NCBI GenBank assembly: GCA_963779755.1
Contig: CAVZZO010000003.1
Location: 1,568,001 to 1,632,000, forward strand
Source of the DNA: an uncultured Gemmatimonadales bacterium
GTDB lineage: Bacteria; Gemmatimonadota; Gemmatimonadetes; Gemmatimonadales; GWC2-71-9
Reading direction: 5' to 3'
DNA length: 64,000 nucleotides
The notes beneath the pieces were generated by a model. That model was given only the letters and a program-made list of their open reading frames with translations. It did not search any database and was not told where the DNA came from. Every line of letters starts with the position of its first letter. Position 1 is the stretch's first letter. A program made the position numbers and the translations under genes. Positions 1,788 to 14,190 of the stretch are shown piece by piece.

Positions 1788-2771
1788 ATGGCCCCAAAGT
1801 CAAAGCCGCCCATTGCCGATAGCGCACCGCTCTTCCGCCGCCGGCTGCTGCGCTGGTTCCGCCGCCACGGCCGGGATCTGCCCTGGCGCCGCACCCGCGA
1901 TCCCTACCAGGTGCTGGTATCGGAGATCATGCTGCAACAGACCCAGGTAAGCCGGGTGCGCGACTTCTACCCCCGCTTCCTGGCCCAATACCCCAGCATC
2001 GAGATCCTGGCCGGCGCGAGCCCGCGCCAGGTGCGCGAGAGCTGGGAAGGGCTGGGCTACTACCGGCGGGCGGCCAACCTGCACCGGCTGGCGGGCGAGG
2101 TGGTGCGGGAGTGCGGCGGCACCCTGCCGCGTGAGGTGGACGAGCTGCGCCGCCTGCCCGGCATCGGCCGGTACACGGCGGGGGCGGTGGCCTGCTTCGC
2201 CTATGAGCTGGCCGAGCCCGCGGTGGACACCAACGTGGCCCGGGTGCTCCGCCGCGCCTTCCATCCCCGGCTACGCGCCCGGGGCGCCGAGCGGCGCCTG
2301 TGGGACACCGCCCGCCGCCTGCTCCCGCGCAAAGGCCCCCCGGCCTGGGCCTTCAACCAGGCGCTCATGGAGTTGGGGGCGGTGATCTGTACGGCGCGGA
2401 AGCCGGCATGCGAGAGGTGCCCGGTGGCGGGGGTATGCAAGACTGGGAAACGGGAAAAGGGAACGGGTCTAAACAGGGAAACGGCGCTGATCAATTCCCC
2501 TTTCCCGTTTCCCGTTCCCCTTTCCCCTTTCCCCTTTCCCGTTTCCCGTTTCCCGTTTCCCGTTTCCCGTTTCCCGTTTCCCGTTTCCCGTTTCCCGTTT
2601 CCCGCGCTCACCGCGTATATCGCATCATCACTCCCGCCAGCAAGGCCAATAGCGCGAGGGTGCCGGCAATGGAGGAGAAGACCCGCTGCCGCACGCGCAG
2701 GGCGTCGAACACCGCGGCGGCGGGACCGGTGGGGTCGATCCGGGCCAGCCGGGCCGACGTGGGCACGGTAA
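1788..2771 (+). CDS. mutY: A/G-specific adenine glycosylase. Recognisable protein ends near 2445; the ORF then reads through a repeat array.
   Basis: RDLPWR, VSEIMLQQTQV, WEGLGYY, HhH LPGIGRYTAGA, VDTNVARV, and Fe-S motif CTARKPACERCPVAGVC. Confidence 0.9.
   Translation: MAPKSKPPIADSAPLFRRRLLRWFRRHGRDLPWRRTRDPYQVLVSEIMLQQTQVSRVRDFYPRFLAQYPSIEILAGASPRQVRESWEGLGYYRRAANLHRLAGEVVRECGGTLPREVDELRRLPGIGRYTAGAVACFAYELAEPAVDTNVARVLRRAFHPRLRARGAERRLWDTARRLLPRKGPPAWAFNQALMELGAVICTARKPACERCPVAGVCKTGKREKGTGLNRETALINSPFPFPVPLSPFPFPVSRFPFPVSRFPFPVSRFPFPALTAYIASSLPPARPIARGCRQWRRRPAAARAGRRTPRRRDRWGRSGPAGPTWAR
2446..2604. repeat. Inverted pair of heptamer tandem arrays: (GGGAAAC)-like arm and (TTTCCCG)n arm
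   Basis: gggaaacgggaaaagggaacggg at about 2446-2483 and roughly 15 TTTCCCG/TTTCCCC units at about 2495-2604. Confidence 0.9.
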
Positions 2772-3072
2772 TGACCAGCACCAGCACGGAAGCGATCAGC
2801 CCGGCCCCCTGCATCACCATGAGCCAGATACTGGGCGCCGCGGCGGCGTAGGCCTGGTACATCTCAAAGGTGAGCATGACGCCGGTGAGCAGCGTGATGG
2901 CCGCGCCGGGCCCCACCAGGATCCGGGTGATGGCGGCCTGCAGCCGGGCGAACACGGCCAGGGCAGAGCGTTCCTCCTTCCGGCTGGCGATGGAGGCGAC
3001 CATCATGGCCAGCGCGGCCCCGATCCAGATCACGAACCCGAACCAGTGCAGGAACAGCATCGTCCGGAACAT
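2608..3072 (-). CDS. Hypothetical 4-TM membrane protein (DUF2269-like)
   Basis: Four hydrophobic segments with N-terminal FLH...WIG pattern; last gene of a tightly packed operon. Confidence 0.65.
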   Translation of the reverse strand: MFRTMLFLHWFGFVIWIGAALAMMVASIASRKEERSALAVFARLQAAITRILVGPGAAITLLTGVMLTFEMYQAYAAAAPSIWLMVMQGAGLIASVLVLVITVPTSARLARIDPTGPAAAVFDALRVRQRVFSSIAGTLALLALLAGVMMRYTR

Positions 3073-3504
3073 TTACGGCAGCCTTTCGCTGAATTCTTCG
3101 GGGTGGAGCGGATGGCGCCCGTCGAAGCCCGCATCCACCTCGTGCCAGTAGGCGATGCGTTCCTCGCCCAGGTGCCAGCAGAGAAACACCAGCCGGTCTT
3201 CCCGCAGGGTGTAGAAATCCACCAGGCCGGCCTCGAAGCCCTTGAACAGACACCCGACCTGGGTCAGCTCGCCCAGATAGAGATTGATGCGCTCCGCCCG
3301 GGTGGAGACTTCCTCCCGCGCCAACAGGAGCTCGGGGGTTTCGCCCCAGTCGGCGCGCGCGCCGCCGCTCAGCAGCTCGTAACGCGCCACCGCGGCGCGC
3401 CACCGGGGGTATTCCTCCTGTATGTCGCTCACTACCCGCGCCACCAGGGGCAGCGTCGACTCGGCTTCCTCCAGGGTGAAGATCCGCATGTCGCCCATGC
3501 TCAC
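3073..3504 (-). CDS. DUF2203 family protein
   Basis: FTLEEAESTLP, GLVDF, LCWHLGEERIAYWH and GFDGR motifs. Confidence 0.85.
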   Translation of the reverse strand: MSMGDMRIFTLEEAESTLPLVARVVSDIQEEYPRWRAAVARYELLSGGARADWGETPELLLAREEVSTRAERINLYLGELTQVGCLFKGFEAGLVDFYTLREDRLVFLCWHLGEERIAYWHEVDAGFDGRHPLHPEEFSERLP

Positions 3505-3908
3505 CCCCAGGCAATAGTGATCTCCGGAATCTGCTCCGGATGGCTGATGAACCCCAGCACACAGCCCGCGCCGTCCACCACCGTGATGGTGGGCCGCAGA
3601 TGCGATTCGCCGTCTTCCGGATCCATCCGCAGCGTGAAACCTTTCAGCTCCTGCTCCGGGCCCACCCTGCAGGTGTTCCGCCGCATCAGCTGGTCGGCCC
3701 GCACCTCCCGCGGCTCCAGGCCCGCGGCCAGGCAGCGGGTCACCAGGTCGCGATCGCTCAGCACGCCCAGGAAATGGCGGGTCCGGTGATCGTCCACTAC
3801 CGGCACCACCGACACGTTCCGGTCCCGGAAGAGAATGGCCAGCTCACTGGCGCGTGCGCCGGCCACCGCGACGTGGGGATTGGGGACCATGACTTCGGAG
3901 GCGAGCAT
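3501..3908 (-). CDS. CBS domain protein
   Basis: VPVVDD...LGVLSDRDL and VVDG...LGFIS CBS pair patterns. Confidence 0.8.
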   Translation of the reverse strand: MLASEVMVPNPHVAVAGARASELAILFRDRNVSVVPVVDDHRTRHFLGVLSDRDLVTRCLAAGLEPREVRADQLMRRNTCRVGPEQELKGFTLRMDPEDGESHLRPTITVVDGAGCVLGFISHPEQIPEITIAWG

Positions 3909-4021
3909 GCCAGGAGCCGCGATTCAGGATAGGGACCAGGAGCCAGGGACGCAGGGAATTCTAGGGCCCCCCCGGAGGACCGGGCAACCGGCCTGATTCC
4001 TGATTCCTGGTCCCTGATCCC

Positions 4022-4885
4022 TCATTTCAGCGCCTCCCGCGCCGCCTCGTACCCCTGCTCCCGGTACCATTCGCCCTCTTCCACTCTGAAGGTGGAGCCC
4101 CGGCGCACCGGCGGCCGTACATGCACCAGCCGCGGCCCGGCCGGCCAATGGGGACGCTGGAGCGCGGTATTGGCCGCCATGAGTATGCCGATCCCGGCGT
4201 CGTGGGCCCGTGCCAGCGGGGGCATGGCGGAATCGTCGTCGCCACCCATCTCGTCGAACCCGGCCCCGGTATCCACCGAGAATACCAGCTCCGGGCCCAG
4301 CGCCGCGGCCGGCTCCCAGGGCACCACCATCCGGAAGCCGCCGTCGATGTACTTGCGGCCGTTGCTGACAACCGGCGGATAGAAGAACGGCAGCGCACAG
4401 GTGGCGAGCAGCGACTCGATGAGGGGAACGTCGGGGCCCAGGTTCTCCCACTCCGCCATTCCCGATTCCCGATGCCCCGCTGCTCCGCGGATCGCGGCCC
4501 CCAGCAGCACCAGCCCCCCGGTCGCAAAGTCTACGGCGGTGACGGTGAGCGGCGTTTTCAGCTCGCCGAACCGGCGGGCGGGAATCAGCCGCTCGAAAGT
4601 GTCGCGCAGGGGCTCGACCTGAAACAGGGAGGGCGCGGTGAGCCCCCGGATGGCAAGCAGGGGCCGGGTGCGGGCGACGTCCTTGCGGGTGACCGTGGCC
4701 AGGGTACGTTCGATCTCCGCCTGCGACAGCCCGGTGGCATACATGGCGGCGATCACCGCGCCCATGGAGGTGCCCAGGTAGTGCGACGGCACGATGCCCG
4801 CTTCGGTCAGCGCGCGGTGGGCGCCCACGTGGGCGGCGGCCTTCACCCCGCCGCCGCCGAACACGGCCACCGTCCGCGGGCTCAC
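4022..4885 (-). CDS. Patatin-like phospholipase
   Basis: GGGGVK oxyanion loop, GTSMG nucleophile and DGG motif. Confidence 0.9.
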   Translation of the reverse strand: MSPRTVAVFGGGGVKAAAHVGAHRALTEAGIVPSHYLGTSMGAVIAAMYATGLSQAEIERTLATVTRKDVARTRPLLAIRGLTAPSLFQVEPLRDTFERLIPARRFGELKTPLTVTAVDFATGGLVLLGAAIRGAAGHRESGMAEWENLGPDVPLIESLLATCALPFFYPPVVSNGRKYIDGGFRMVVPWEPAAALGPELVFSVDTGAGFDEMGGDDDSAMPPLARAHDAGIGILMAANTALQRPHWPAGPRLVHVRPPVRRGSTFRVEEGEWYREQGYEAAREALK

Positions 4886-5873: not shown

Positions 5874-7172
5874 TCAGGACATCCAGTAGAAGGCGAGCTT
5901 CGGCGCATCGGGCGGGATGATGCTGGTCTGCACGGTGATGCCGTTCTCTTCCGGCGAGCCGCCGGAGGACTGGGGCGGAGGCACCGCCCGGTAGAGGCGC
6001 CCCGAGACTTCGATAGTGCCCAGCATGTGATCCACCGCGTTCTGCAGGTAGGCCTCCTTGAAGTTCCCCAGCAGGTGCGTCGGCACCGGGGTCTTCCCCT
6101 GCACCTCCGGCAGGGCGAAACCGTCCAGCGAAATGGCCCGGTCCAGGAAGCAGGCATCGTACAGATACCAGGCGCCCTGGTAGCGGAGGAAGTTGACGCA
6201 ATGCCCGTCGGAGGCCACGCCGGGCGAGCCCCAGAACCGGTAGCGCCGCTCCGTCACGTCCTGCACCGGCGACAGGTCCACCGGCTGGGCGGAGACGTCG
6301 TGGAAGAGGCTGGGATCGTCCACCGGCTCGGTCCGGTTGATCCCCGGGTTCCGCACCACGATGGCGCACCAGCGCACATCGTGCTCCGCGTCGGCCGGCC
6401 AGGCCACCCAGAAGCTCCGCCGCTCCACCCGGACGCCCTGTACGCCCGCCATGGCCTGGAACATCCGGTACCAGCCGCCGCAGTAGCCGCCCTGCTTCTT
6501 CAGCATCTGGTGGACCGTCCAGGCCGGCACGGCATACTGCAGGCCCGTGGTACGCACCTTGGCGATGATGGCGTCGCAGATCGCCTTCTCGTCGGCGCAG
6601 CCGGCGGCCCAGTCGCAGGTCCAGCGCAGCAGCGGCTCGAAGACCCAGCGCCCGGCCACCGAGGCGGGCCGAGGCGCCCGGGCGGCCCGGTTGCTGCGAT
6701 GCCAGAGCACCGCCTCCACCGGCATCTTCCAGACGAGATAGATCAGATGGCTGCTGGTTCCGAGCGGCACCTCGCGGCTGCCGGCCCGGGCGGTCCATTC
6801 CCACTCCACCTGCACCGACCCGATGGCCGACGGCAGCGCGGCCTCCATCTCGAGTTCGCAGGGCGCCGAGCGGCCATCGGGGTTGAACTGGAGCCGCACC
6901 TCTCGCGCCGCGACCCCCGGGCCCCCCGTCCCTCGCGCCTGAACGGTCCAGGCGCCATCGTCCAGTCCGGCGGACCGGTTCAACACCACCCGGATGCGCG
7001 GGCGGGTCCCGCAGGGGTATGCGGCGGGGTCGGGACTGCTCCCCGCCCGCCACTCGGGAACGGCGCCCAGGAAACGCTCATCCCCGGGATCGCGGATGGG
7101 CACCGCCTGGTCGTTCTCCTGATAGGCGAACGCGATGCTCTGGATTGCCGGCGGTGGGCCGCTGCCTGCCAT
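5874..7172 (-). CDS. Hypothetical protein with a transglutaminase-like (Cys-His-Asp) domain
   Basis: GYCGGWYRMFQAMAGVQGV ... GHCVNF ... WYLYDAC has the order and spacing typical of TGase-like triads. Confidence 0.6.
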   Translation of the reverse strand: MAGSGPPPAIQSIAFAYQENDQAVPIRDPGDERFLGAVPEWRAGSSPDPAAYPCGTRPRIRVVLNRSAGLDDGAWTVQARGTGGPGVAAREVRLQFNPDGRSAPCELEMEAALPSAIGSVQVEWEWTARAGSREVPLGTSSHLIYLVWKMPVEAVLWHRSNRAARAPRPASVAGRWVFEPLLRWTCDWAAGCADEKAICDAIIAKVRTTGLQYAVPAWTVHQMLKKQGGYCGGWYRMFQAMAGVQGVRVERRSFWVAWPADAEHDVRWCAIVVRNPGINRTEPVDDPSLFHDVSAQPVDLSPVQDVTERRYRFWGSPGVASDGHCVNFLRYQGAWYLYDACFLDRAISLDGFALPEVQGKTPVPTHLLGNFKEAYLQNAVDHMLGTIEVSGRLYRAVPPPQSSGGSPEENGITVQTSIIPPDAPKLAFYWMS

Positions 7173-7205
7173 ACCGGACTCCGGTCGTGCGCTGAGGGAT
7201 CGTCC

Positions 7206-7282
7206 ATTGTAATACCGGCGCCGCCCCGCCGCCCGGGAAGAACCGGCACCTGCTTGACGCGGACCGTGCCGCTCCCTATATC
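7206..7282. promoter_or_regulatory. Divergent sigma70-like promoters
   Basis: Plus strand: TTGACG (7254-7259), 17-nt spacer, TATATC (7277-7282) upstream of the precursor. Minus strand: TACAAT (7211-7206) upstream of the TGase-like gene. Confidence 0.55.
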
Positions 7283-7365
7283 AGCCTACCGCCTTATCAC
7301 CGTTCCCTGCGGCGGGCCGGTTCTCCGGCCCGGGCGTCCCACCCTTTGCCCCCTGGAGGTCCCAT

Positions 7366-7560
7366 ATGTCCCGCTTTACCAGCAGGGATCTGATGGTCTC
7401 CGTCCTGCCGGAGGATGGAGTCGAGTTGATGGCCGGTCCCAAAGGATGCTTGAAAAACACTACCGGGTGCACCAACGTGACCAAAAAGCTGTACCCCGAG
7501 CTCTCCGGCCCGGACGACCTGGCCCTTCTGCAGGAGCAACTCACGCTGGCACAGCTGTAG
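7366..7560 (+). CDS. Putative lanthipeptide (RiPP) precursor peptide, 64 aa
   Basis: GGAGGT RBS upstream; central Cys/Thr-rich core GCLKNTTGCTNVT; first gene ahead of lyase-like and kinase-LanC genes. Confidence 0.8.
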   Translation: MSRFTSRDLMVSVLPEDGVELMAGPKGCLKNTTGCTNVTKKLYPELSGPDDLALLQEQLTLAQL

Positions 7561-7576
7561 GCTTCCGGGCGGAAGC
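7561..7576 (+). terminator. Stem-loop directly after the precursor stop (attenuator or mRNA stabiliser)
   Basis: GCTTCC-GGGC-GGAAGC hairpin with no U-tract. Confidence 0.4.
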
Positions 7577-7613
7577 GCCGATCCGTGCTTCCGCCCCTGT
7601 TCCTCCCTCCCCG

Positions 7614-8762
7614 ATGTCCACACTCCAGGAGTCGTTATTGCAGCGGCGATTCCGGGCTGCTTCCGCGTGGCGGATGGCAGCCTGGGACCGGTTGAGCCCG
7701 GGACGGCAGGCGTGGCTGCGTTCCTTCCGCGGCGATGACGATTTCTTCGGCATTCTGGAGCCCCGGGAGGCAGGGCCCGGCGTTCAGGCGATCTCCCGGC
7801 CCACCGCCCGGCTCTTCCAGCGGCTGGGGCGCCCAGCGCGCCTTCCCGCCGAGTTTCTCGAACAGGAAGGCGCCGCCGCCGCCCGCACCGCGGCCCGCCT
7901 GGTGCTGGACGGCGTCCTGGAAATCGAAGGCGACGGCGCCTTCGTGGGCGGACCGGCGGCGCATGCGGTCCTCTTCACCCCCACCGCGCCGGCCATCCCG
8001 CGCAGCGGAACGGCCCGGCTCTCCCGGGCCGCATTGCATTACGGCGAATCGCTGCGCCTGCGTGACGCTGCCCTGCTCGCTGCCCGGCTCTACCGGTTCA
8101 ATACCGAACCCGCGACCCCGCGCCTGCGCCGCGACCTCGGCGGCCGCGATGCGATTGGCCGGCTGCTCCGGAGCACGGGAATCTCCTGGGTGCAGAACCC
8201 GGCGCGCGCATGGCTCACCTGGGCTCCGCCGCGGCCCGGTCCTCCGGTCGAAGGGCGGCGCCACTACAAGCTCTACCTGAGCATCCCCGCCGCCCACCTG
8301 CCTGACGCGCTCCCGACCGCGCTCGGCGTCCTCCGCCGGGTGCCGGGTATCGATTCGGCCAAGCTGGGCGCAGACATTCCCGGCCTGATCCGGCCCGACA
8401 AGTTCGTGGTCTACTTTGCCCGCCGGCGTGACCTGCGCGCGGCAGCCCGGCTGCTGGCCCCCGCGCTCGAGGGCCTCCCGGCGCAGGGCGTTCCCTTCAG
8501 TGCCGGGCTGGAGCGCCGGGGCGTGCTCTCCTGGGGCGCCGAGCCGGCGGCCGACGAACCCGTTCCCGCGGGGTGGCAGGGCACCAGCTGGAGGACTCGC
8601 ATCGTCAGCCGGCTCGCCTCCGCGATGGCGGCGGCGCTCGCGCTGGACCACGCGCCTGTGCCCCCCTGGCGCTTTGCCCAGGACCGCCTGAGCCTCGACG
8701 GGGTCGATCCCAGGACCTGGACCCCAACCCCCGCCTTCCACTCGGACGGCGGCTCGCCATGA
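7614..8762 (+). CDS. HopA1/phosphothreonine-lyase-like RiPP modification protein, 382 aa
   Basis: Likely real start at ATG 7614 within the 5391-8762 ORF. Motifs YKLYLS, AKLG, RPDKFVVYF, SWGAEP, GVDP. ATGA overlap with the next gene. Confidence 0.65.
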   Translation: MSTLQESLLQRRFRAASAWRMAAWDRLSPGRQAWLRSFRGDDDFFGILEPREAGPGVQAISRPTARLFQRLGRPARLPAEFLEQEGAAAARTAARLVLDGVLEIEGDGAFVGGPAAHAVLFTPTAPAIPRSGTARLSRAALHYGESLRLRDAALLAARLYRFNTEPATPRLRRDLGGRDAIGRLLRSTGISWVQNPARAWLTWAPPRPGPPVEGRRHYKLYLSIPAAHLPDALPTALGVLRRVPGIDSAKLGADIPGLIRPDKFVVYFARRRDLRAAARLLAPALEGLPAQGVPFSAGLERRGVLSWGAEPAADEPVPAGWQGTSWRTRIVSRLASAMAAALALDHAPVPPWRFAQDRLSLDGVDPRTWTPTPAFHSDGGSP

Positions 8763-11150
8763 CGCTGACGGAGCCGCTGGTCCTGCGCCCGGACGTGCTG
8801 ATCATCCCGGTGCCCCGGCTCCCGGACCGGATTCGGCGGCAGATCCAGGCCGACCCTTCCGAATTTGCCGTGACTCTGCGCCACGGACGGGGTGGCTCGC
8901 GCGTGGTGACGGCCGAGACCGCCCGGCTGCTGGAAGGTTTCCGGTCGCCCAGCCGCGTGGTCGAGGTCGTCCTGCGGTACAGCAGGGAGCAGGGAGTGCC
9001 ACCCGATCGGTTGCTCGCCGACGTCTTTCCCGTTGTGAGCGACTGTTTCAACCAGCGATTTCTGGTTCCGGCCGCTTCGCCCGATGCCCGCCGCATCGAG
9101 CCGCTGCTGGCAAGCGGCGCGCGGGTGGCCGGCTGCGAGATCCGCCGGCTGGTTCATCTGCTGGAGGACACCGAGGTCTACCAGGGGCTCGCTTCCTCGG
9201 GCCGGGCCGTGGCCGTCAAGCTGGCCCGGTCCGGCTCGCGTGTCGTACGCGAGGCGTTTCGGCGCGAGGCCACCGTCCTGCGCCGGCTCCGGGGAAGGGG
9301 CGCACCGCGGGTGCTCAGGGCCGCCAACCGGCAGGGGCGGCCCTGCCTGGTCCTCGAGTGGTGCGCCGGGGTGCCGCCCACCATCACCCCCGGGGGGCCG
9401 TCGTCCCCCGGCGAGCGGATGCGGCTGCTGCTGGCCATCCTCCGCCGCTACGCGCGGCTGCATGGCCTGGGCGTGCTCCACGGCGACGTCCATCCGGATA
9501 ACATCCTGGTTGACCGGCGCGGCGGGGCGACGCTGCTGGATTTCGGCCAGTCGGCCCTCACCCGGGGCCGGCCTCCCGTTGCGCCCGGCCCCCGGGGCGG
9601 TGTGGCCTGGTATCTCGATCCCGAGTATGCCGGGGCGCTTCTTCGCGGCGAGCCGGATCCGCCGCTCACCGCCGCGGCGGAGCAGTACAGCCTGGCCGCC
9701 CTCGCCTATCGCCTGCTCACCGGCGACCACTACCTGGAGTTCGGGCTGGAGCGCCCGGTGCTGCTCCGCCAGATCGTGTCGGACGACCCGCTCCCCTTTG
9801 CCCGCCGCGGCACCGAGCCCTGGCCCGCGGTGGAAGCGGTGCTCGAGCGGGCGCTGGCCAAGGATCCGGGTGCCCGCTACCGGTCGGTCGCGGCATTCGC
9901 CCGGGCACTCCGCGCGGCCGCCGCTCGCCCGCGACCGGGCGGGCGGGTCCCCAGGAAGGAGGGGGCCGAACTGGAACATGCCGTTCGGCAAACCATTGAC
10001 CTGCTGGACCCGTCTGCCGCGCTCTTCGGCGGCGCGCTGGAGGCGCCTTCCTGTTCGGTGTGCTATGGATCGGCCGGGATCGCCTTCGCGCTCTACCGCT
10101 TCGCCTCGATGCGCCAGAGCCCGGCGTTGCTGGCCGCCGCCGACAGCTGGCTCACCCGCGCCGAGCGGGAGAGCGGCCACCCGGGCGCGTGGCACAACCC
10201 GGCGATCGACATGGGCGCCGGCGACGTGGGCCCGATCTCGCTTCTCAACACGCCCGCCGGGCTGCATCTGGTCCGGGCCCACCTGGCTCAGGCCGTGGGA
10301 GACCAGGAGGAGCTGACCCGGGCGGTCGAGCGGTTTCTCGACGCGTCCAGCACCCCCTGCGACAGGCTCGACCTCTTCCTCGGCCGGGCCGGCACGCTGC
10401 TGGGCATCGTTCTGCTGCTCGAGTTGCTGCCGGAGGGGGCAACCGCCGCCGCGGCCAGCCTGCGGAACGCGGGCACGGAAGCGAGTAGATTTCTCCGGGA
10501 CCATATCAATGCACTGCCGGTGCCCGGTGCCACCGGCGGCTTCAGCACCCTGGGCATGGCTCACGGATGGGCGGGCCTGCTCTACGCGCTGCTCTGCTGG
10601 CAGCGGGTCTCGGGGACCGCGCCACCGGCCTGGCTGGACCCGCGCCTGACCGCAACTGGCGGCTCTGGCCGAGCCGGTGGGACGGGGTCTGGGGTGGGTC
10701 AATGCCCTGCCGGCGGGGAACGAGGCCGCGGCGCCGGCAGCGGGCTGGTGCAAGGGAGCCGCGGGGTTCGTGCATCTCTGGCTGGAGTCCCATCGTAGCG
10801 GTGGGAACCGGGATCACCTCCGGCTGGCGGAGGCGAGCGGATGGACTGCCTGGGAGGCGGCCGAGCCGATGTCCAATCTCTGTTGCGGCGTCGCCGGCCG
10901 CGGATATGCCCTGCTGCGGCTGTACCGGCACACCGGATCGCCGGTGTGGCTGGAGCGCGCCCGGCGCCTCACCCTGCATGCGGTACGATCGCTGCGCCAC
11001 ACGGCGCGCGACCCCCAGGCCATGAGCCTCTACAAGCATTGGCTGGGGATCGCGCTGCTGGCGGCCGACCTGCAACGACCCGAACAGGCCTGCATGCCGC
11101 TGTTCGAGAGCGAAGGCTGGCCCGTCTCCGCCCCGGGAACCCATGGCTGA
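8759..11150 (+). CDS. Lanthionine synthetase: RRE-like N-terminus, Ser/Thr kinase and LanC cyclase, with a +1 frameshift near 10650
   Basis: Kinase motifs VAVK, HGDVHPDN, DFG. LanC motifs YGSAG, LGRAG, GMAHGWAG, and after the frameshift WCKGAAG and LCCGVAG. Confidence 0.85.
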
Positions 11151-14100
11151 TCTGAGGACCCTGCTGCAGGCCTCGCTCGAGGGCCGCTATCAGGTGGAGC
11201 GGCAGCTTGGTCGTGGCGGCATGGCCATGGTCTACCTTGCCCGCGACCTGCGCCACGACCGCCGGGTTGCCATCAAGGTGCTGCTCCCGGAGCTGGCGGC
11301 CGGCATCAGCGCCGAGCGGTTTGCCCGCGAGATCCGGGTGGCGGCGAACCTGAGCCATCCCAACATTCTGCCGCTGTACGATTCCGGCCTGCTGCAGTTA
11401 CCCATGGCCGAAGGTCAAAGGTCGAGGATCGGAGGGGAGGCTTCGGACTTCGAGAGGACGCCGCTGGCCGTCCCCTACTACGTCATGCCCTACGTGGAGG
11501 GTGAATCGCTGGCGCAGCGGCTCCACCGGGAAAGCCAGCTCCCCATCGAAGAGGCGCTGGAGATCGCCGAACAGGTCGCCGCCGCGCTGGCGGCGGCGCA
11601 CGAACAGGGCGTCATCCACCGCGATATCAAGCCGGAAAACATTCTGCTCTCGGGCGGCCGCGCCATGGTGGCCGACTTCGGGATCGCCCGGCCGGTGAGC
11701 GCCGAGGAGACCGCGCGGCTCACCGACACCGGACTCATCGTGGGCACGCCGGAGTACATGAGTCCCGAGCAGATTGCGGGCGACCCCCGGCTGGACAGCC
11801 GCAGCGACATCTACAGCCTGGCCTGCGTGGTGTACGAGATGCTGGTGGGGGAGCCGCCGTTCACCGGGCCCACGCCCCAGAGCATCCTGGCGCGCCATAC
11901 GCTGGAACGGGTCCACAGCATGCGCAACGTGCGCGACACCATTCCGGAGTCGGTCGAGCTCGCCGTGGCGCGCGGGATGGCCAAGGCCCCGGTGGACCGG
12001 TTCCGTACCGCCGCCGATTTTGCGCGTGCGTTGCGCGCCCCCGCCCCCCCGCCGACCCGGGAATATCCCGCTCTCGCTCCCGGCCGGCCTCGCGCGCGCT
12101 GGATGCTGGCGGCGGCCCTCACGGTATTGGTCCTGGTCGCCGTGGCGATCGGCTACCGTCTCCGGGACCGCCCGCCGCGGCCCCTCGCGCTGGATCCTGC
12201 CCGAGTGGCGGTTCTCCCCTTCCGGATCACCGGCACGGACGACAGCGCCTCACGGCTGCTGGCGCGGAGCGCGAGCGATCTTCTGGCCCAGCGGCTGCCC
12301 GGTGGTGGCGGTCCCGCGGCGGTGGATCCCGGCACCGTGAGCGGCGCGCTCAACCGCCTCCCGGCGCCGGACCGCGCGGCCCTCACCCCGACCATCGCGA
12401 GCCGGGTCGCGGGCATGGTGGGCGCGGGACAGGTTCTGCTGGGCGATCTCTGGACCGGCGACGGCCGGGTCGTGCTGAATGCCACCCTGCTGGACGCCCG
12501 CAACCAGCAGCCGATCACCCGGGTAGAGAACGTGCGGGGCCCGCCGGACAGCCTGTCGTCGCTGCTGGATCGTTTCACCACCGAGCTGCTGGTGCGTGCC
12601 GCGGGCGAAGCCGACCGGCTGCCGGAACTGCTCGGCCATCCGCTGCCGGCCTTGCGCGCCTACCTGGGAGGCACACTGGCCTATGCCGGCGGCAGGTTCT
12701 CCGAGGCCGCCGACCGCTACATGGCCGCCTTGCAAGCCGATCCCTCGCTGGCGGCCGCCACCCTGGGGCTTGCCTCGCTCTCTACCCTGGAGAAGGTGGA
12801 CGCCTGGCGGGACTCCGCCTGGCGGCGGCGGTCGGAGCTCATGCCGGCAGACCGGGCCTACCTCGCGGCCCTGGTGGGCCCGCGCTATCCCCGGGAATCG
12901 TCCGTAGCCGAGCGGTTGGCCGCCTGGGAGAAGGTGGTGGCGGCCGACCCCAACCACTGGGAGCGCTGGTACCAGCTGGGCGAACTGCTCTACCATTCCG
13001 GCCCGCTGCTCGGCGTGCCCGGGATCCACGAGCGGGCCGGGGCCGCATTCCGCCGGACCCTGGACCTGGCCCCCCGCTTCGTGCCGGCCCTGGGGCACCT
13101 GCTGGACCTGGCCGCGAGCGACACCGACACCGCCCAGGTGCGAGCCCTGGGCACGCGGTACCTCGCGCTGGACTCGGTGGGCGACCTGGCCGACTACTAC
13201 CGCTGGCGCATCGCCGTAGCGCTGGGCGACAGCCTCGCGCTGGCGCGGCTGCGCGGCCGCTTCAGCGACCTGAGCGTCGCCACGCTCGACCGCATCATCG
13301 AGATGTCCCAGCTGGACGGGGTCGCCCTGAGCGATGCCGTGCGGGCCGCGCAGGCACTGCGCAGCGGAAGCGGCCTGAGCGGCGACACCCGCGTGGCGTT
13401 CATGAAGCTGCAGGAGATCGCGCTCAACCGGGGACGACCGAAAGAAGCCGCCGACCTGTCCCGCCAGCAGACCTCTGAAATTTCCATCCGGCCGCGGGAC
13501 CGGTTCACGTCGGTGGCGGATGCGCTCTACTGGGGCGCGGACACGGTCCAGGCCGCGCGGCTGGTCCAGCAGTCGGCCGCGATCGCCGATGCGCCGGCAC
13601 GCCCCGGCGAGCCGGACAGCTCCGACGCCTACTTCGACGTGTGCGCCACCGGGCTCTGGCGCGCAGCGCGGGGAGAGATGGCTACCCTGCCCCGCCTCAT
13701 CACACGGCTACGCCGGGTCGCTCACCCCTTCGACCAGTTCCAGACGGGCTACATCGGCCTCTGCGCCGAAGTGCTGGAGACCCAACTCGCCTCCTCCCTC
13801 CGCCGGCCCGACCTTCCGGTGCTGGTGAACCGGCTGGACAGCCTCATGCGCACCGGACCGCCCTCGATTACCTGGATGCTGGTGGGGTCGAACCTGACGG
13901 TGGCGCGGTTGCGCGAGGCCCAGGGCGACTATCCCGCCGCGCTGGCCGCCACCCGGCGGCGGATCTACGTGACCGACCTGGGAGAAATCCGGATCCTGGT
14001 GGGGCTTTCATCCTTCCTGCGGGAGGAAGGCCGGCTCGCCGTCCTGGCGGGCGACACCACCGCGGCGGTGAGCGCCTACAGTCACTATCTGGCGTTGCGG

Positions 14101-14190
14101 GACGATCCGGAGCCGGGGGTGAAGCCGGAGGTGGAGAAGGTGCGGGCGGCCTACCTCGCCCTTGAAAAAGGACTGGGAGAAAAGGACTGA
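11143..14190 (+). CDS. Hanks-type Ser/Thr kinase with TM helix and TolB_N/TPR-like extracytoplasmic region
   Basis: LGRGGMAMVY, VAIK, HRDIKPEN, DFG, GTPEYMSPEQ; TM segment; VAVLPF motif. Confidence 0.9.
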   Translation: MADLRTLLQASLEGRYQVERQLGRGGMAMVYLARDLRHDRRVAIKVLLPELAAGISAERFAREIRVAANLSHPNILPLYDSGLLQLPMAEGQRSRIGGEASDFERTPLAVPYYVMPYVEGESLAQRLHRESQLPIEEALEIAEQVAAALAAAHEQGVIHRDIKPENILLSGGRAMVADFGIARPVSAEETARLTDTGLIVGTPEYMSPEQIAGDPRLDSRSDIYSLACVVYEMLVGEPPFTGPTPQSILARHTLERVHSMRNVRDTIPESVELAVARGMAKAPVDRFRTAADFARALRAPAPPPTREYPALAPGRPRARWMLAAALTVLVLVAVAIGYRLRDRPPRPLALDPARVAVLPFRITGTDDSASRLLARSASDLLAQRLPGGGGPAAVDPGTVSGALNRLPAPDRAALTPTIASRVAGMVGAGQVLLGDLWTGDGRVVLNATLLDARNQQPITRVENVRGPPDSLSSLLDRFTTELLVRAAGEADRLPELLGHPLPALRAYLGGTLAYAGGRFSEAADRYMAALQADPSLAAATLGLASLSTLEKVDAWRDSAWRRRSELMPADRAYLAALVGPRYPRESSVAERLAAWEKVVAADPNHWERWYQLGELLYHSGPLLGVPGIHERAGAAFRRTLDLAPRFVPALGHLLDLAASDTDTAQVRALGTRYLALDSVGDLADYYRWRIAVALGDSLALARLRGRFSDLSVATLDRIIEMSQLDGVALSDAVRAAQALRSGSGLSGDTRVAFMKLQEIALNRGRPKEAADLSRQQTSEISIRPRDRFTSVADALYWGADTVQAARLVQQSAAIADAPARPGEPDSSDAYFDVCATGLWRAARGEMATLPRLITRLRRVAHPFDQFQTGYIGLCAEVLETQLASSLRRPDLPVLVNRLDSLMRTGPPSITWMLVGSNLTVARLREAQGDYPAALAATRRRIYVTDLGEIRILVGLSSFLREEGRLAVLAGDTTAAVSAYSHYLALRDDPEPGVKPEVEKVRAAYLALEKGLGEKD

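Follow-up and report, generated by a model that had tools for sequence, protein, structure and literature searches.

Which kind of lanthipeptide synthetase, if any of those known, is encoded by the small group of genes at positions 7254 to 11150 of the 64,000-nt stretch analysed here, from an uncultured Gemmatimonadales bacterium? (The whole stretch is referred to as the window, and coordinates are those of the window unless a locus, written L plus a number, is named.) The group comprises genes for a 64-aa peptide, for a 382-aa protein that we regard as a candidate lyase, and for a Ser/Thr kinase fused to a LanC cyclase. We conclude that it is probably a two-enzyme cassette of the lanthipeptide type, i.e. 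one that forms thioether rings in a peptide made by ribosomes and modified after translation (RiPP), and that it carries its own precursor. The combination of precursor, free lyase, and kinase-LanC protein is real and widespread. Most of the parts listed in a preliminary description of the locus are indeed present. The small Cys/Thr peptide is the 64-aa open reading frame (ORF) at 7366-7560 on the + strand, with 2 Cys, 6 Thr, and 4 Ser; the hairpin placed after it exists, with 12 bp and a folding free energy (dG) of -27 kcal/mol; the 382-aa ORF at 7614-8762 contains both KLYLS and RPDKFVVYF in its translation; and the ATGA at 8759-8762 is at once the lyase stop and the kinase-LanC start. The proposed promoter fared less well. 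TTGACG-17-TATATC can be read at 7254-7282, yet a consensus scan returned no promoter-like sites in 7100-7700, so nothing beyond resemblance supports it.

The 382-aa protein belongs to a large family of hypothetical proteins of ~390 aa, of which a word-based search recovered 311 at E ≤ 0.001 and a full profile search 1611 representatives (50% identity) at the same threshold, 1164 of them at E ≤ 1e-30. Compared by sequence with the chains of the PDB, it gave no matches as a single-sequence query and chance-level matches only as a profile. A structure model built from 39 family members reached a mean predicted local distance difference test score (pLDDT) of 92.8, and a Foldseek search with this model of the 7614-8762 product returned LxmY, a part of the lexapeptide dehydratase (E 3e-7), and HopA1 (4.5e-7) as its top PDB matches; behind them came lyase domains from the lanthipeptide synthetase CuvL, and OspF and SpvC, both phosphothreonine lyases. 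The protein is thus predicted from the model to have the HopA1/LanY/OspF lyase fold, in agreement with the earlier proposal that the lyase of this system is a separate protein. Support from Pfam within the family is weak, with HopA1 matched in 7 and RamC_N in 4 of the 39 members.

The active site was mapped by aligning two class III RamC_N domains from actinomycete genomes to the lyase family profile with hhalign (probability 92.9%, E 3.7e-7); the mapping is one of profile alignment and spacing, not of residue-level superposition. In this alignment GWKIHVS pairs with HYKLYLS, FK with AK(250), and KFITVY with KFVVY(267), and the K-x-H motif falls on K219-x-Y221. The active site of SpvC consists of K104, H106, K136, R148, and Y158. 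By the same alignment and spacing the lyase keeps Lys219, Lys250, Arg260, and Tyr267 of the OspF/SpvC-type residue set, and Tyr221 takes the position of the His; all five are invariant in the 39 sequences. The spacing of K250-R260-Y267 (10 and 7) equals that of K219-R229-Y236 in CaoY, residues that were tested by mutation, and CaoY has Arg187 at the position of OspF Lys104 (accessible part of PMC9486802). Because the OspF/LanL Lys is kept, Tyr replaces His, and the spacing is as in CaoY but with Lys for the CaoY Arg, the predicted active site is intermediate between those of class III/IV and class V lyases.

The preliminary description proposed that the protein encoded downstream joins a Hanks-type kinase to a LanC bearing zinc-ligand motifs (WCKG, CCG), and the family searches bear this out. 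Pfam Pkinase matches residues 139-327 and is the better-scoring kinase model (55.3 bits vs 38.6 bits for APH), and all 44 orthologs examined match both Pkinase (best E 5e-21) and APH (best E 4e-14). The residues K154, E170, H-G-D243, N248, and D261-F-G are invariant in these 44 kinase sequences. LANC_like is matched behind the kinase, with GWCKG and LCCG present. Among the intact cyclase orthologs CCG and W-C-[NQH]-G are found in 66/66 and G-x-A-H-G in 63/66; the two Cys motifs and G.AHG are thus kept, and the third ligand position is Cys in every ortholog, where class IV enzymes have Cys-Cys-His. The zinc site is accordingly predicted from its motifs to be of the three-Cys CCG type. The best NCBIfam model for the kinase-LanC protein is class IV LanL (NF038150), which gives 98.2 and 46.7 bits with the two pieces encoded in the window and 134-173 bits with six of six intact orthologs, against a cut-off of 650. 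These orthologs match positions ~183-807 of the model only, and the LanL lyase domain, positions 1 to about 180, is never matched.

In place of that lyase domain, the first ~110 aa of the kinase-LanC protein adopt the winged-helix fold of a RiPP recognition element (RRE), with three strands and three helices as in known RREs, and the RRE-like N-terminus that had been suggested for the gene at 8759 is thereby confirmed. The N-terminal domain of the lyase matches it by profile. Each of the two enzymes therefore has its own copy of a related RRE-like domain, which extends the earlier account to the lyase as well. According to the accessible part of PMC10604976, no lanthipeptide polypeptide of classes II-V has an identifiable RRE. 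At one locus (L091, 1124-2286, in the relative G032) the lyase homolog covers profile positions 128-392 only, in a frame of 300 aa that is closely preceded by a 115-aa ORF; this is a split gene or a form lacking the RRE-like domain, and it looks like a split ORF.

The two enzymes are tightly linked. We scanned one genome per species and obtained 80 loci, the majority from Thermoanaerobaculia and other Acidobacteriota, Gemmatimonadota, Chloroflexota, and Solirubrobacterales; others come from Nitrospira, a Zoogloeaceae metagenome-assembled genome (MAG), and the cultured actinomycetes Catellatospora, Nonomuraea, and Micromonospora. A kinase-LanC gene lies directly 3' of the lyase gene in 78 of the 80, at a distance of 0-173 nt except at L005 (1170 nt). 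One of the two loci without it (L002) ends 6 nt past the lyase, and the other (L050) has none in its remaining 1081 nt. Pairwise identities of the lyase and of the kinase-LanC protein are correlated (r 0.93, 66 loci), as would be expected of syntenic genes anyway. A fused lyase-kinase-LanC form was sought among longer proteins and none was found, which is weak evidence; the single match, P0267, has an unrelated N-terminal part, and the fused form was set aside. The distribution is patchy: the cassette is present in 2 of 40 relatives of the genome that carries the window, which itself has one cassette copy and one kinase-LanC gene.

A precursor accompanies the enzymes at most loci. The window peptide consists of an N-terminal motif, MSRFTSRDLMVSVLP, a core, GCLKNTTGCTNVT, with 2 Cys, and a C-terminal helix, DDLALLQEQLTLAQL. 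A hidden Markov model iterated from it was run on 7191 small ORFs from both strands and picked out 49, spread over 41 of 81 sources and all on the strand of the lyase gene. Searching the leftover loci from stop to stop added 23 longer precursors in 22 loci (E < 1e-3). The neighbourhood survey thus finds a related precursor upstream and on the same strand in 62 of the 80 loci, in addition to the window, so that the peptide is conserved in homologous loci as the preliminary description required; several of the loci lacking one have little upstream DNA. Neither the window precursor nor 12 related ones matched any Pfam or NCBIfam family, and no second precursor copy was found in the genome of the window, whose single precursor is the one described here.

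These peptides share conserved ends and differ in between. The N-terminal motif reads M-x-F-x-x-R/K-D-L-M/G-V/I-x-V-L/I-P, and its F-x-x-x-D-L portion is presumably reminiscent of the class I FNLD box. The C-terminal amphipathic helix follows A-L-x-x-L-R-x-Q-L-R-x-x-L, with a long coiled-coil-like tail added in many members. The core is hypervariable and frequently tandem-repeated, e.g. CTPSPP, CPDDSHG, CTNEPT, and CESGTACPEGTEPP. Cores could be delimited in 66 of 72 precursors, with approximate boundaries set by regular expressions; they contain 9.4% Cys, 9.3% Thr, 6.2% Ser (Ser+Thr 15.5%), 12.4% Gly, and 10.3% Pro, with a median of 7 Cys and 11 Ser+Thr per core. At least two Cys are present in 66/66, and Ser+Thr equals or exceeds Cys in 64/66. 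L005 carries two tandem precursors (2258-3175 and 3195-4058), both ~285 aa long and containing 26-28 Cys each, set in repeats of a C-x-x-x-x-[ST] unit, and these would be protein-sized substrates of the same enzyme pair.

From the observed folds, conserved residues, linkage, and precursor family we propose the following chemistry, order of steps, and binding of precursor elements to enzyme domains. The RRE-like domains of both enzymes would presumably dock the precursor by its conserved N-terminal motif; its C-terminal amphipathic helix may offer a further handle, comparable to the leader helix, also amphipathic, to which class III enzymes bind (PMC10604976, accessible part). By analogy with classes III to V, the kinase domain would phosphorylate Ser and Thr of the core. 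The separate RRE-lyase would then eliminate phosphate to leave dehydroalanine or dehydrobutyrine, with Lys250 as the likely base together with Lys219, Arg260, and Tyr267. The LanC domain, at its putative three-Cys zinc site, would add the Cys thiols of the core to the dehydro residues and so close the thioether rings.

The features of the window and of the loci compared with it are collected in Table 1. The stem-loop between the precursor and lyase genes folds more stably than expected (z -3.83, with equal folding in 0 of 200 shuffles). As a terminator it finds no backing, with no T-run 3' of the hairpin and no sites in a terminator scan. The closest relatives, L001, L002, L007, and L018, likewise have stem-loops 3' of the precursor stop, and this recurrence would be compatible with control of the ratio of precursor to enzymes.

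Table 1. Positions of the cassette, its predicted domains and signals, and associated genes.
Feature	Position	Strand	Basis or detail
Divergent 432-aa gene, no known family, association uncertain	5874..7172	-	no Pfam/NCBIfam match
Promoter-like TTGACG (7254-7259), 17 nt, TATATC (7277-7282)	7254..7282	+	resemblance only, weak
Shine-Dalgarno GGAGG, 6 nt ahead of precursor ATG	7355..7359	+	sequence
Precursor gene, 64 aa	7366..7560	+	ORF; member of precursor family
12-bp stem-loop between precursor and enzyme genes	7567..7596 (arms 7567-7578, 7585-7596)	+	folding
Lyase gene, 382 aa	7614..8762	+	ORF
RRE-like N-terminal domain of lyase, residues ~1-112	7614..7949	+	
Predicted HopA1/LanY-type phospho-Ser/Thr lyase domain, residues ~126-377	7989..8762	+	invariant K219, Y221, K250, R260, Y267
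Kinase-LanC gene, start ATGA-coupled to lyase stop	8759..11150	+	ORF; frame changes at 10649-10652
RRE domain of kinase-LanC protein, residues 1-111	8759..9091	+	
Ser/Thr protein kinase domain (K154, E170, HGD243xxxxN248, D261FG)	9173..9958	+	Pfam Pkinase E 8.4e-15
LanC cyclase, first part (GMAHG)	10052..10648	+	Pfam LANC_like residues 432-618; NCBIfam LanL positions 203-685
Frame change, four bases vs one codon in orthologs	10649..10652	+	orthologs single-frame throughout
LanC cyclase, second part, other frame (GWCKG, LCCG)	10650..11150	+	Pfam LANC_like positions 215-344
1015-aa Ser/Thr kinase, one membrane helix (about residues 318-340), ~680-aa TPR-like C-terminal part	11143..14190	+	Pfam, hydrophobic segment
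Membrane kinase orthologs	L001 9799-12732; L007 7166-10078; L018 4097-7037; L027 8762-11656; L029 7137-10055		
Extra precursor / PD40-kinase	L009 1658-1906, 2030-5569; L036 1254-1737, 1783-5343		
Extra precursors	L004 1727-1966; L049 1103-1571; L052 1434-1757; L073 2623-2937		

The start of the membrane kinase gene that follows the cassette overlaps the LanC stop by 8 nt. Full-length orthologs (~1000 aa, 42-49% identity) lie directly after the kinase-LanC gene at the five loci listed in Table 1, that of L018 being 47% identical over its first 857 aa; the paralogs in the genome of the window match over the ~300-aa kinase domain only. Conserved in the window and its five closest relatives, the gene for this membrane Ser/Thr kinase counts as a fourth gene, and the idea of a chance paralog was discarded because these relatives carry full-length orthologs. 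In several Acidobacteriota loci, extra precursor copies immediately precede genes for ~1180-aa proteins that combine two kinase domains with PD40 beta-propeller repeats, a few kb ahead of the main cassette. The genome of the window has at least 43 Ser/Thr kinase matches, and on its contig C1, at about 429,000-539,000, ~20 kinase genes (encoding ~850-1070 aa) form a large tandem array within ~110 kb, nearly all on the + strand. Elsewhere the flanks of the window are of a housekeeping kind (an MlaE/ABC pair, an endonuclease III-like protein, a patatin, a thioesterase, and an NAD synthase). The divergent 432-aa protein has a counterpart in the same position at only one of the 80 loci (L007, 1894-3153, - strand; 45% identity). 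A weak Atlas lead to Transglut_core (score 0.78) and a C...H...D pattern suggest a transglutaminase-like cysteine protease, which could be a candidate leader peptidase.

Several observations weigh against a working lanthipeptide cassette. The lyase of the window itself matches no Pfam or NCBIfam family, and the family has Tyr where OspF and LanL have their catalytic-acid His. Many precursors, at 150-290 aa, exceed the usual length of lanthipeptide precursors, and that of the window has only 2 Cys, the fewest among the 66 delimited cores. No transporter, leader protease, or tailoring gene recurs beside the cassette (Pfam, 52 flanking ORFs from 12 loci), where only Ser/Thr kinases recur. Finally, a frame change falls within the LanC of the window copy and divides it; the Leu codon at 10646-10648 precedes the site and the Gln codon at 10653-10655 follows it. 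Because the cyclase reading frame is broken, this copy is either inactive or mis-assembled at one base, and it may be inactive. A possible but somewhat doubtful explanation is that the window holds a decaying, non-functional remnant, with a genuine frame change and a short two-Cys precursor that has ceased to be ring-modified. The change does lie outside any homopolymer, the gene concerned is the only kinase-LanC of the genome and its partner the only precursor, no delimited core has fewer Cys, and just 2 of the 40 related genomes searched have the cassette. On the other side, the catalytic residues of lyase, kinase, and LanC are all intact, both before and after the break, and no further stop or shift occurs within the 3.9 kb. 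Of the kinase-LanC copies, 71 do not run off the end of their locus, and of these 66 are intact (740-856 aa) and five are shorter; four of these five (L014, L051, L071, L072) resume in another frame. Because all four come from one MAG assembly series, frameshifts in this gene may often be assembly errors.

A different objection concerns the product, which might not be an exported antibiotic at all. It could instead be linked to the co-encoded Ser/Thr receptor kinases, as a signal, ligand, or substrate, or be a modified protein left uncut. We consider this unlikely, albeit with several points in its favour: a full-length membrane kinase with a TPR-like domain follows the cassette in the window, where it overlaps the LanC stop, and in five relatives; extra precursors stand upstream of tandem-kinase/PD40 proteins in L004, L009, L036, L049, L052, and L073; no transporter or protease is conserved; and the long precursors often end in coiled-coil-like tails. 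Some adjacency to kinases is to be expected, however, because such genes number dozens per genome, and class III and IV clusters often lack dedicated proteases. That the enzymes instead modify cellular proteins, with kinase, lyase, and a LanCL-like thiol addition serving regulation or repair, seems very improbable. OspF-type lyases and LanC-like proteins can act on proteins, and the kinase domain is of the general Pkinase type; but 62 of 80 loci have, immediately upstream and on the same strand, an ORF rich in Cys, Ser, and Thr whose ends are conserved, and both enzymes have the RRE-type folds typical of RiPP pathways. It is just as hard to believe that we are looking at an ordinary class IV LanL or class Vb system whose apparent difference comes from the frameshift or from gene calling. 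The best NCBIfam match is LanL, and the three activities are those of classes III to V, although the lyase positions of LanL go unmatched, the six intact orthologs all score far below its cut-off, 78 of 80 loci encode the lyase in an ORF of its own with no lyase-kinase fusion found among longer proteins, and the kinase forms one chain with LanC instead of being a free APH-type LanK. A two-enzyme lanthipeptide-type cassette thus remains the reading that we favour.

If the cassette is taken this way, it is of interest for several reasons. It is common in soil phyla that have received little study (Acidobacteriota, Gemmatimonadota, Chloroflexota) and occurs also in actinomycetes, with about 1600 sequence clusters in all, and it therefore points to an untouched pool of ring peptides and possibly of substrate-tolerant enzymes. 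It bears on the evolution of kinase-type lanthipeptide enzymes by fusion or fission, and on the relation of RRE-less to RRE-bearing substrate recognition. Its recurrent association with receptor-type Ser/Thr kinases hints at a role in signalling. A bolder proposal, which we put forward as speculation and think improbable as a whole, is that of an undescribed synthetase class in which paralogous RREs sit on a class IV-like kinase-cyclase and a class V-like lyase, the precursor offers two handles (the N-terminal strand motif and the C-terminal helix), and the ring peptides are ligands or partners of the co-encoded membrane Ser/Thr receptor kinases, not classical antibiotics.

How, then, does the cassette compare with the systems already described? 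Lanthipeptide synthetase classes are sorted by enzyme layout, and those nearest to the cassette are class IV LanL and class V LanY. In class IV LanL (VenL, SgbL, CuvL; NF038150), a Pkinase-type kinase is likewise followed by a zinc-type LanC in a single chain. Dehydration by phosphorylation and elimination would by analogy be shared as well, and the lyase keeps the Lys of the K-x-H motif. Unlike in LanL, the lyase of the cassette is a separate protein of the HopA1/LanY structural type and not part of one polypeptide, both proteins have RRE-like N-terminal domains, and an RRE instead of a lyase precedes the kinase. The zinc ligands of class IV are Cys-Cys-His, with the residues of SgbL quoted (accessible part of PMC8341899), whereas the cassette has the CCG motif.

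With class V (LxmK/LxmY, CaoK/CaoY) the cassette shares a free-standing HopA1-like lyase, as LanY is. It differs in that the kinase shares its chain with an RRE and a LanC and has Pkinase and LanL as its best-scoring models, whereas LanK of class V is free and APH-type (PF01636), and in that the lyase has Lys219 for Arg187 of CaoY, Tyr at the His position, and an extra RRE-like domain. A class Vb with kinase, HopA1-like lyase, and LanC as three separate proteins is known (PMC12328550, in the part accessible). There (SmoK/SmoY/SmoC) LanC stands alone, while in the cassette it is fused to the kinase. The same part of PMC12328550 describes class VI as a truncated LanKC of streptococci.

More distant systems share single traits. 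The cyclase domains of class III lack zinc ligands (accessible part of PMC8341899), and the cassette, unlike the class III LanKC enzymes (RamC, ThurKC, CurKC), keeps three Cys; class III enzymes are moreover single chains without an RRE. The three-Cys CCG motif is that of ProcM-type class II LanM enzymes, among which it goes with tolerance of very diverse cores (PMC10027976, accessible part), and the cores of the cassette are hypervariable. ProcM-type enzymes differ in dehydration chemistry and domains, and the genome of the window has one precursor only. The fusion of an RRE/PqqD-like fold to a modifying enzyme is a feature of class I LanB (NisB, MibB) and of other RRE-bearing RiPP enzymes, although the catalytic domains of LanB are unrelated.

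The preliminary description had held that the layout fits neither textbook class, and this judgement stands. Since lyase, kinase, and cyclase do not form one chain, the LanL cut-off of 650 is not reached, the kinase is fused and not a free APH-type LanK, and the lyase lacks the Arg of LanY, the cassette belongs to neither class IV nor class V. Full-text searches of openly accessible papers turned up no published account of an RRE-lyase plus RRE-kinase-LanC system, and NCBIfam (June 2026) had no model for the lyase or the precursor. The cassette thus mixes traits that are usually taken to separate the classes: its kinase and zinc cyclase resemble those of class IV, its free lyase that of class V, its RREs those of class I, and its three-Cys site that of ProcM. 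It is probably an undescribed lanthipeptide synthetase layout, at the level of a new layout or class.

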